A stretch of 50,635 nt of DNA from Girardia tigrina (taxonomy: Eukaryota), in assembly GCA_001938485.1 (NCBI GenBank), contig MQRK01219800.1:1-50635 (forward strand), read 5' to 3'. The notes below the pieces were generated by a model. The model saw only the letters and a program-made list of their open reading frames with translations. It did not search any database and was not told the DNA's origin. Shown here one piece after another: positions 48,002-50,501 of the stretch (its first letter is position 1; each line of letters starts with the position of its first letter). Position numbers and translations under genes: made by a program.

Positions 48002-50501
48002 TGTAACAAGGATTAACAAATCTATAAAATTTATTTTTCAACAAAAAATACTTTTAAATAGATACTGTTTAAACAAATAATTTTTTCATGTTAAATATTT
48101 CATTTAAGAAATAAATTTAACATGTAACACTCCCCCCAGATTCTTCATCACAAGAATCTATATCTACTACATACTCGTTCAAATAATTCGGTTTTCGTCT
48201 TTCTCTTTGGCGTCTGTTGTTGATTACCGATTCACTTTGCTTAACACTAGAAGCTGATTCGTTATTATTTTCTCACATGTAATCCGAGTAAGAGTTTCGC
48301 GGCAGGTCTGATTGTCTTGGTCGAATATCTGCTATATGCCGGGACCGCAAGTACTTTTATTAAGTACTTTCTTTGATCCAATTTTCTAACGACAACGCCT
48401 CTTGTCCATTGCTTTGTACATGGCATATTATTTTCAGGCTTTACCCAGACTAACTGTTGCTCTATAAAGTCTGTCTTTACCTTTTTGTAAACCGGATCCT
48501 TTTCAATTCTTTCTATTATCTCCAAACCGACTGGAATGTACTTTTAAAGTGCTGAACTAGATGTTTCATTTCCGTTGGACGGTGTATTGTTATACCACCA
48601 TACCTAAATGTCATCGATGTACGAGTGAGTGTTTTCACGTACTCTAGGATAACAATTTAAAATCCACTCGACAATTTCAGTCATAATAGTCGGAGAGATA
48701 TTTAAACCAAAGCCCATCCTGGTTAGAGCGTACTTTTTGCCATTAATGATACATGATTGATAACGCCACATTTCCTTGTAACGCGAATCTGCATATACGC
48801 CTCTGATAAATCAAGCATGGAAAATCTTGATCACTTTCGCCGCCAGGTACGAAGTTTTTCTGAACATATATCTGCTGAGCCACTGTACACGTCTACATAA
48901 TTTTTAAATTTCCTAAAATCAAAGATCGGTCTTATCTTGGATTTGTTAACTTGCAATATTCCAAATATCGGTATAGATCCTATCGATTTACCCATTCCTT
49001 CTCGTCATATTCGATTAAATAACCCTTCTTCATCCACTCCTCATGGATTTTCATTGGGGTTATGGCTTTCGATTTGTCATTCTTAAAGGTGAAATGTCGA
49101 ATTGGTAGATAACTCGGCGCCTAATCTTTCCATTTCCATTTAACCGTCCAATTATCTTTAAATTCAATCTCATAATTGTGTTTTTTCAGGCTAATACTTG
49201 GCACAACACCCGTGACACAACTTAGACTGTCACCAGCCCTCTTTATTCCTTCTCCTACATACATACCAAATTCGATAACACCCTTATTTATTTTCACACC
49301 CACAAGTTCACTTATAACATCCATACCAATTAAAATTCCTAAATCATAGGGTAAGTATTTCATAGCAGAACATTCTACTTTCTTAGTTCTATTGTCTATA
49401 GTCAATTCCACGTCACAAATCCCCACACATATATCATCGCCATTAGTCAAAACAATTCGTTGCTCATTTGACTGTAATGAGTTTCCATTGATCAACCCTT
49501 TCAAAACAACAGTTTTTGAGCAACCCTAATCTATCAAAACTGTAATCGACTTGTTGTTAACAATGACAGTCATGGTTGGCAGCGCCGGAAATGACAGAGG
49601 GAGAGAGCCGGCACATACAAACTCCCCTGTCCGTTTCCAAACTTGCAATATTTTGCTATATGTCCAAGTTGCGTACATTTATAGCAAATTATTTGCCCAT
49701 TAGATTGCCGCTTAGAATTTTCATAACGGTTTACCCTTGTTTTTACCAGATTTCCGTTATGTGACATACTGGGTTTTATAAAGGAACTCCTTCTACGACG
49801 GTTGACCTCACCTCGTTCTTTAGAAACGATCTTTCCATCACCAACGTTTTGTACCGCTGACATTGAACTTTGTGTGACGCACTTTTTAATTCGTAAATAC
49901 CTGCGACTATATTCAACCATTTTAGTTAAATCTTGATCGCCGGCCAGCTCTAAATTCAATTGCAACTCGAACGGCAATCCAGCCATAAAGGCCGCCTTGG
50001 TCAGATCGTCGATTTTTGATGCCAACATCTTTACTTGAGAAACGTAACCGTCAATATTTTGTTATTCGTAATATTTCAAATTAATCAGTTGGCTGTACGC
50101 AGATCGTCTGGTTAATCCGAATGAATTGTCAAAGATTTGCATTACTTCTTCATAGTTGCTTTGTTTCTTTTCATCCAATTCCATGTATATATTTCACGGA
50201 ACATACTTAACAAAAAAAGGAAGATATGGGGCCGGATCCAAAATCCCCTGGATTTTCATAATCATCTTGAACTTTTTCTTCCAAATTTCAAAACTACCGT
50301 TTCCATTAAATTTCTCCAAATGATCGAGTATAATTTTTAAATCGCTTATCATTGCCCGGATAGCTTGTAACAACGAATCACAAATCTATAAAATTTATTT
50401 TTCACAAAAAATACTTTTAAATAGATATTATTTAAACAAATAATTATCTATATTTTTTCATGTTAAATATTTCATTTAATAAATAAATTAAACATGTAAC
50501 A
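48002..50501 (-). mobile_element. Ty3/Gypsy deletion derivative with ~130-bp LTRs
   Basis: LTRs 48002-48129 and 50366-50501 (TGTTACA...TGTTACA); TSD TTTAA; PPT TGGGGGGAG; CYKCTQLGHIAKYC; ILIGMDVI; RMGFGL, SYIDDI joined directly to integrase WWYNNTP. Confidence 0.93.
50354..50365 (-). promoter_or_regulatory. Atypical PBS complementary to nt 1-12 of tRNA-Lys(UUU)
   Basis: + strand GCCCGGATAGCT abuts the 5' LTR end with no spacer; gag ATG at 50352. Confidence 0.65.

Follow-up and report, generated by a model that had tools for sequence, protein, structure and literature searches.

A candidate primer-binding site complementary to tRNA 5' ends in a compact clade of invertebrate LTR retrotransposons

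What primes reverse transcription of an LTR retrotransposon whose 5' LTR is followed directly by the complement of the first twelve nucleotides of a host tRNA, and not by that of a tRNA 3' end? The question is raised by an element on the minus strand at the right end of a 50,635-nt stretch of Girardia tigrina DNA (contig MQRK01219800.1), the whole of which is referred to here as the window. Three primer types are listed in the accessible text of two papers, namely the 3' end of a tRNA, a half tRNA produced by a cut in the anticodon arm (for copia lineages alone) and a self-primer (PMC6317226, PMC10886601), and the available portions of three others hold no 5'-end priming mode (PMC7472051, PMC3601003, PMC12859917). 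The literature searched, with the literal site variants included and with subscription papers, Repbase Reports and supplements mostly outside its scope, yielded no description of the site or of the clade that carries it. This agrees with the original prediction, to whose author such a mode was not known as described; there is a modest chance that an earlier published note on the site exists. The site is real and clade-wide, and appears to represent an undescribed form of tRNA-fragment priming with a geometry like that of Tf1.

The window element and the site at its LTR edge

The 5' LTR of the element (50366..50501, minus strand; 136 bp, TG..CA, AT-rich, a repeat of 48002-48129) is followed on the minus strand, without spacer, by AGCTATCCGGGC (50365-50354), one further base and the gag ATG (50352-50350). 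This candidate primer-binding site (50354..50365, minus strand) complements nt 1-12 of the host tRNA-Lys(UUU) exactly and lies flush with the LTR end. The original prediction had read the junction in the same way, as a 12-mer directly after the 5' LTR CA with no TGG and the gag ATG one base on, and had spread the feature over 50340-50372; only 50354-50365 of that span is the site itself, the rest being LTR end and gag start. The LTR boundary is confirmed by the 3' LTR (48002..48129, minus strand; 128 bp, TG..CA), by the purine run that precedes it, a polypurine tract in the form of a G run (48130..48137, minus strand) that abuts the 3' LTR and is arranged alike in other copies, and by a 5-bp target-site duplication that is identical on the LTR-5' side (50502..50506) and the LTR-3' side (47997..48001). 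Such a 5-bp duplication also flanks 4 of 7 other copies that were checked. The two LTRs of the window copy align with 120 identities and 7 mismatches over 127 aligned positions, with 10 gap positions.

The coding region is broken and internally deleted. Translation of gag (49620..50352, minus strand) is interrupted by stops and a frameshift, and the gene carries a CCHC knuckle of the form CX2CX4HX4C at ~49645-49686 on the minus strand (zf-CCHC, E=0.0011). The first part of pol (48598..49573, minus strand), with stops and frameshifts, encodes an aspartic protease, a WTVKWKW stretch and the RT up to its catalytic motif, and is 87-91% identical to residues 1-326 of a close relative, P0001; the last part, the integrase C-terminus (48123..48603, minus strand), matches P0001 residues 790-952 and follows directly after residue 326. 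A deletion at ~48600, across which pol jumps from residue 326 to residue 790, thus removed the rest of the RT, the RNase H and the integrase core. Elsewhere in the Girardia tigrina genome, full-length copies measure ~3.9 kb.

Within the window alone, with up to 2 mismatches allowed, one match to the site is found and 0.53 are expected, which is not significant; the significance of the 12-mer comes instead from its genome-wide excess, 2,443 exact matches to AGCTATCCGGGC against 11 for a reversed-pattern control. In a sample of 30 loci, 27 come after an LTR-like CA and one after AA, these 28 preceding gag-like starts of several unrelated families; the remaining two (L023 and L026) lie inside pol coding sequence and were rejected as chance matches. 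When the window family was anchored on both LTR end and gag start, 815 junctions were found with exactly 12 nt between the two. Among the first 100 of these, judged by eye, 69 are identical to the window site, 31 have one or two changes or an N, and none starts with TGG.

Other repeats were observed in the window. A second, conventional Gypsy-like element on the minus strand at 19467-23446 is broken, has LTRs of ~100 bp and encodes a gag with CCHC, a protease, an RT with YLDD, an RNase H and an integrase; what follows its 5' LTR is not a site of the tRNA 5'-end type. Inverted-repeat pairs at 3939-6174, 36237-37774 and 42170-43153 (arms of 73, 53-98 and 140 bp, respectively) resemble DNA transposons or MITEs.

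Host tRNAs with matching 5' ends

Four host genes called tRNA-Lys(UUU) by ARAGORN start with the exact complement of the site. These genes thus carry the 5' sequence expected from the original prediction, in which the 12-mer was taken to be the exact complement of tRNA-Lys(UUU) nt 1-12 ending at G1. The host tRNA set is partial, 63 of 57,303 candidates having been scored and 16 classes recovered; among these classes, with CCA added and every register compared, position 1-12 of Lys(UUU) is the only exact match, and Lys(CUU) differs from the site by one mismatch. No tRNA 3' end matches within this incomplete set, so that the 3' end of another RNA, which the original prediction had named as a competing partner, was not found among the recovered classes. 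The match is bounded by G1 on one side and U12 on the other, and tRNA C13 faces the terminal A of the LTR, with which it cannot pair. Acceptor pair 6 of tRNA-Lys(UUU) is a G-U wobble, and the site has at this position a C, the Watson-Crick partner of the 5' strand, and not the wobble base that the tRNA's 3' strand carries there. Since the pair-6 base follows the tRNA 5' strand, the site is not a copy of the tRNA 3' end, and a copy of the 3' strand is ruled out.

A second site type occurs in the same genome, with 1,190 matches to a pattern that excludes the Lys type and 2 for the control. By eye, 71 of the first 100 listed matches are one sequence, and most others are one change away from it or from the Lys type; this main sequence is the complement of nt 1-12 of the host tRNA-Phe(GAA). 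The 58 junctions from 60 sampled loci fall into 20 clusters, of which 7 are Lys-type, 13 Phe-type and none mixed. No third dominant type was seen in this genome, a looser pattern giving 269 matches against 130 for its control, mostly near variants of the Lys and Phe types.

The host tRNA-Phe sequence was taken from the two halves of an insertion-split gene, no intact gene having been found. On a single contig, 1.8 kb separates its 5' part from its 3' part, and the two share a 14-base overlap; the anticodon GAA is in the 3' part, whose acceptor strand pairs with the opening 7 bases of the 5' part. ARAGORN under relaxed settings gave only spurious calls on the split tRNA-Phe loci. The split itself, a ~1.8-kb insertion with a 14-base duplication in the D-arm, was observed at L144:89-119 and L220:1501-1556 (G000:C181207), and looks like the work of a mobile element targeting tRNA-Phe genes; other contigs (L135, L136, L150, L221, L222) hold only the 5' or the 3' half of tRNA-Phe, several with similar flanks. 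Two further observations concern site-like sequences: at L115:70-81, and in L120, the site of a relative fits the pattern for 10 bases with the last two swapped, directly before the ATG, and at L139:1501, and in L140, a repeat has on its sense strand a tRNA-like A-box stretch, placed directly after ACA and ahead of an ATG, which is not a tRNA by ARAGORN.

Relatives of the element and placement of the lineage

A search with a pol fragment gave 182 relatives among 7,994 candidates scored; a crab, a bryozoan and also a leafhopper are the hosts named at the protein level. In metagenomes, scanning with an alignment of 32 proteins produced 299 pattern hits and 166 relatives, of which the best 80 were kept, yielding 66 distinct loci at 31-41% protein identity. 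A site of the same type lies flush with the LTR end in 53 of the 66, and a strict site pattern is found in 50 of the 66, against a mean of 0.46 and a maximum of 4 in shuffled sequence; no TGG site was seen among these metagenome relatives. Conservation of the 12-mer across copies and across the clade, on which the original prediction depended, thus holds for 69 of the first 100 family junctions and for 53 of the 66 metagenome loci. Of the other 13 loci, eight were read, one showing an LTR end and the first 7 bases of a site before diverging, one starting inside the site and the rest being without a 5' junction; the remaining five were judged from coordinates to be without a 5' junction as well. 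Among viral contigs, 17 pattern hits gave no confirmed relative. Many ~4-kb metagenome contigs (L065, L067, L070, L094, L106) are circularly permuted with one LTR, and may reflect repeat assembly or one-LTR circles.

The 47 distinct metagenome junctions comprise 11 site variants, with 14, 11, 9, 5 and 2 members and six singles, and they vary at the bases that stand opposite nt 4-6 of the tRNA. One base past G1, information has fallen from 1.85 to 0.39 bits. The pattern by which relatives were counted was itself drawn from the data and holds several columns fixed, so that conservation of the columns is partly circular, while this drop and the flush position are not. The 14-member variant, the commonest of the 47, is identical to the end of a published probe antisense to the Drosophila tRNA-Phe 5' end and matches nt 1-12 of the fly tRNA as far as the available text of the probe's source gives it (PMC7038984). 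The 11-member variant matches the Girardia tigrina tRNA-Phe, and one of the singles is the Lys type of the window. A tRNA could be assigned for 26 of the 47 junctions, and the other 21, in five or more variants, matched no host tRNA; host-by-host covariation thus rests on two tRNAs of this genome and one of the fly, and a literature search on tRNAs starting with the unassigned variants returned one unrelated chloroplast paper. As judged by sequence matching, the clade's commonest assignable partner is tRNA-Phe, and Lys(UUU) is a variant. The 9-member variant comes from annelid metagenomes, where contigs from three runs cover the site with its 12 bases unchanged and one contig differs at three LTR positions just upstream; that contigs from RNA runs cover this relative does not prove transcription. 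In a quick RT-RNase H tree covering 64 of the 72 loci, the site variants form clusters but have changed several times; one label in it (L076) is wrong, and copies from the Girardia tigrina genome stand in it under the label 'noJunction'.

The order of pol is PR-RT-DUF7047-RNase H-integrase, with gag preceding it. DUF7047 matches in the thumb region, the RNase H matches RVT_3 and not RT_RNaseH, and RVT_1 is near the cut-off. The RT motif of P0001 is YIDD, and a beta-rich module is predicted after the integrase core, in which the exact GPF/Y motif is absent. A model of the RT-RNase H (mean pLDDT 80.8) resembles the retroviral and caulimoviral enzymes at 9-18% identity, CaMV RT giving a TM of 0.68 by target length; by such fold matches, retroviruses, caulimoviruses and Ty3 stand at about the same distance from the pol with WTVKWKW and DUF7047. 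The lineage is not placed by Atlas hits, none of which exceeded 0.90. With Ty3/Gypsy (Metaviridae) the clade shares a gag with CCHC knuckle, the order PR-RT-RH-IN, TG..CA LTRs, a polypurine tract and a 5-bp target-site duplication (the criterion being 4-6 bp), and differs from it in its very divergent RT, the DUF7047 in the thumb and the RVT_3 RNase H. In architecture the clade agrees with Gypsy; it may be an unnamed deep LTR lineage. The Troyka elements or Kuafuorterviruses are likewise a divergent, compact LTR lineage of aquatic invertebrates with Gypsy domain order and short LTRs, but the available text on them gives CG..CG termini in place of TG..CA, a 3-bp in place of a 5-bp duplication, a CX2CX8-10HX4C in place of a CX2CX4HX4C knuckle and IADD, VADD or LADD in place of the YIDD of P0001, and identity with this group was rejected (PMC12440569, PMC11673190). 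A term search of the main text of the Troyka paper found no mention of primer or tRNA (PMC12440569).

Priming by a tRNA 5' end

Three established ways of priming do not account for the site. Canonical 3'-end priming, as in retroviruses and most Gypsy, BEL and Copia elements, likewise places a site at or near the 5' LTR, opens the acceptor stem and can use tRNA-Lys or tRNA-Phe; the site described here pairs with the opposite strand of the acceptor stem, has no TGG and would need a cut or a 2'-OH. It is rejected since none of the first 100 listed family junctions starts with TGG, no 3' end matches among the 16 host classes recovered, and the tRNA 3' 18-mer pairs with the junction irregularly and poorly, at -13.2 kcal/mol, the duplex of the site with tRNA nt 1-12 having -23.5 kcal/mol. 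Half-tRNA priming (Drosophila copia, Ty5, plant Osser, Bryco, Bianca, fungal Copia and Helenus) also takes as primer the 5' portion of a tRNA, its 3' end lying inside the tRNA, and the tRNA type can likewise switch between families, but as described in the accessible text its sites are of the anticodon arm and its elements of the copia type, whereas the clade site pairs with the 5' strand of the acceptor stem and the start of the D-stem (PMC6317226, PMC10886601). It was rejected because the match lies at tRNA position 1-12, not at the anticodon stem-loop, and the integrase does not precede the RT in PR-RT-RH-IN.

Self-priming of the Tf1/sushi type (Tf1, Tj1, Tcn1 and plant TAR) is closer. According to the portions of the papers available, it too pairs an RNA 5' end with an LTR-adjacent site in a short duplex, of 11 nt there and 12 here, and needs a cut at the end of the duplex for release of the primer; the 5' end is, however, that of Tf1's own transcript, whereas in the clade the partner is a host tRNA in trans and the LTR holds no complement (PMC7175516, PMC4600332, PMC6317226). 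The longest exact complement of the site in the window LTR is 4 nt, with a best duplex of -2.5 kcal/mol, as foreseen in the original prediction, where absence of the 12-mer from the LTR was held against self-priming; complements reach at most 5 nt in the window element, and at most 7 nt in the stretch of up to 500 nt upstream of the site in 50 relatives. On these lengths self-priming was rejected. The same searches bear on the proposal that priming comes from a different RNA with the 12-mer at its 3' end, such as an element-encoded RNA, a tRNA-derived SINE or a small RNA. Although the host RNA inventory was searched in part, which leaves room for such an RNA, separate RNAs would be needed to mimic the 5' ends of tRNA-Lys, the host tRNA-Phe and the fly-type tRNA-Phe, and we regard this as highly improbable.

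The 3' end of a primer must sit at the LTR edge. As the base found there is U12, and self-priming and good 3'-end pairing are lacking, the tRNA would be either cut after nt 12 or extended from a 2'-OH, and the geometry of the site implies a tRNA primer truncated at its 3' side. That the primer is the 5' end (nt 1-12) of a host tRNA, Lys(UUU) here and Phe in other families, we consider very probable. A different purpose for the bound tRNA, such as packaging, dimerisation or shut-off of the gag ATG, with priming by other means such as a freed CCA end, would fit the unusual proximity of the gag start, which lies 0-43 nt past the site (median 4) in 39 of the 47 junctions; because the ATG is so close, bound tRNA would probably also block gag translation. 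Yet in 53 of 53 junctions the site abuts the LTR end without spacer, the position required of a primer, and with no TGG seen and the tRNA 3' 18-mer pairing as poorly as it does, such a purpose in place of priming seems very unlikely.

Beyond the complementarity itself, we infer primer, cDNA and cut from sequence. It is somewhat better than an even chance that the site is the primer-binding site of this compact (~3.9 kb) LTR clade, with minus-strand DNA likely started from a 12-nt tRNA 5' piece freed by the element's own RNase H. This supports the original prediction, in which a very short 5' tRNA fragment, cut in the D-arm and possibly by the element's RNase H, was proposed as primer, the cut and its enzyme remaining conjectural. 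In Tf1, according to the parts of the text available, the RNA's initial 11 bases pair with the primer-binding site and RNase H cuts between bases 11 and 12 (PMC7175516, PMC4600332). In the pathway proposed here the observed site, which complements tRNA nt 1-12 and abuts the LTR end, would be invaded by these twelve nucleotides at the expense of the acceptor and D stems; on the Tf1 analogy, RNase H would cleave the tRNA strand where the 12-bp RNA duplex ends and leave a 3'-OH at U12. RT would then extend the primer into U5, the LTR end being set by U12, and plus-strand strong-stop DNA would run off the primer at G1, which would explain both the sharp 12-nt boundary and the way the site follows the tRNA sequence. 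Cofolding of whole tRNA and leader gains 6.8 kcal/mol over the separate folds, a rough value obtained on unmodified RNA with a predicted tRNA fold that is not a cloverleaf. A conserved U5 hairpin beside the site, seen in one cofold, was rejected, 2 of 46 junctions having z below -2 and the mean z being 0.18. The four acidic residues of the RNase H are invariant in 32 of 32 pol proteins, although no LTR element can do without an intact RNase H and these residues do not single out a primer-cutting role. A cut after U12 by the element's own RNase H is, by the analogy, a little better than an even bet.

Two other origins of the primer keep the tRNA 5' end. In one, a pre-existing 5' fragment of 12 nt, or one trimmed to it, cut in the D-arm by a cellular nuclease, would be packaged and used directly. 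5' tRNA fragments are common, a free piece needs no invasion of the acceptor stem, and every sequence feature is accounted for equally well. The fragments described are usually 14 nt or longer, however, and a cut point at nt 12 in 47 of 47 distinct junctions, from very distant lineages and with two tRNA species, fits a ruler set by the element better than varied host nucleases; this source is therefore unlikely. In the other, the tRNA would not be cut at all, and RT would prime from the 2'-OH of U12 of the intact molecule, giving a branched RNA-DNA as in retrons. The same site, flush LTR end and stop at G1 are predicted, and the RT is very divergent, with 9-18% identity to all structures matched. 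Against this, branch priming is known from retrons and is not known for LTR elements, and the fold of the RT-RNase H resembles that of ordinary retroviral and caulimoviral enzymes, which as a rule prime from a 3'-OH, so that branching is improbable. Explanations other than a cut by the element, a host-made fragment or a 2'-OH branch hold, taken together, a small share of the probability.

It appears fairly probable, on the whole, that an unnamed invertebrate-wide LTR lineage, possibly outside Gypsy proper, captures the 5' end of tRNA-Phe or tRNA-Lys and that its RT cuts in trans after U12 or branches from U12, an undescribed link between Tf1 and tRNA priming. The priming modes of LTR elements and retroviruses make a short list, which a clade-wide site for tRNA nt 1-12 would extend, and such a site would join two known modes, as a Tf1-like 5' duplex made with a host tRNA. 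As far as the accessible text of the sources goes, searches for primer-binding sites use only tRNA 3' ends or LTR self-complements (PMC13524379, PMC6317226), and because of this the clade would be scored as having no primer-binding site and be missed. The proposal makes sharply testable, by biochemistry, whether the RNase H of a retroelement is able to cleave a tRNA in trans, and it suggests that elements of the clade either produce very short 5' tRNA fragments or are targets of such fragments. The site is also a diagnostic mark for an abundant and poorly classified lineage, present in thousands of copies in this genome.
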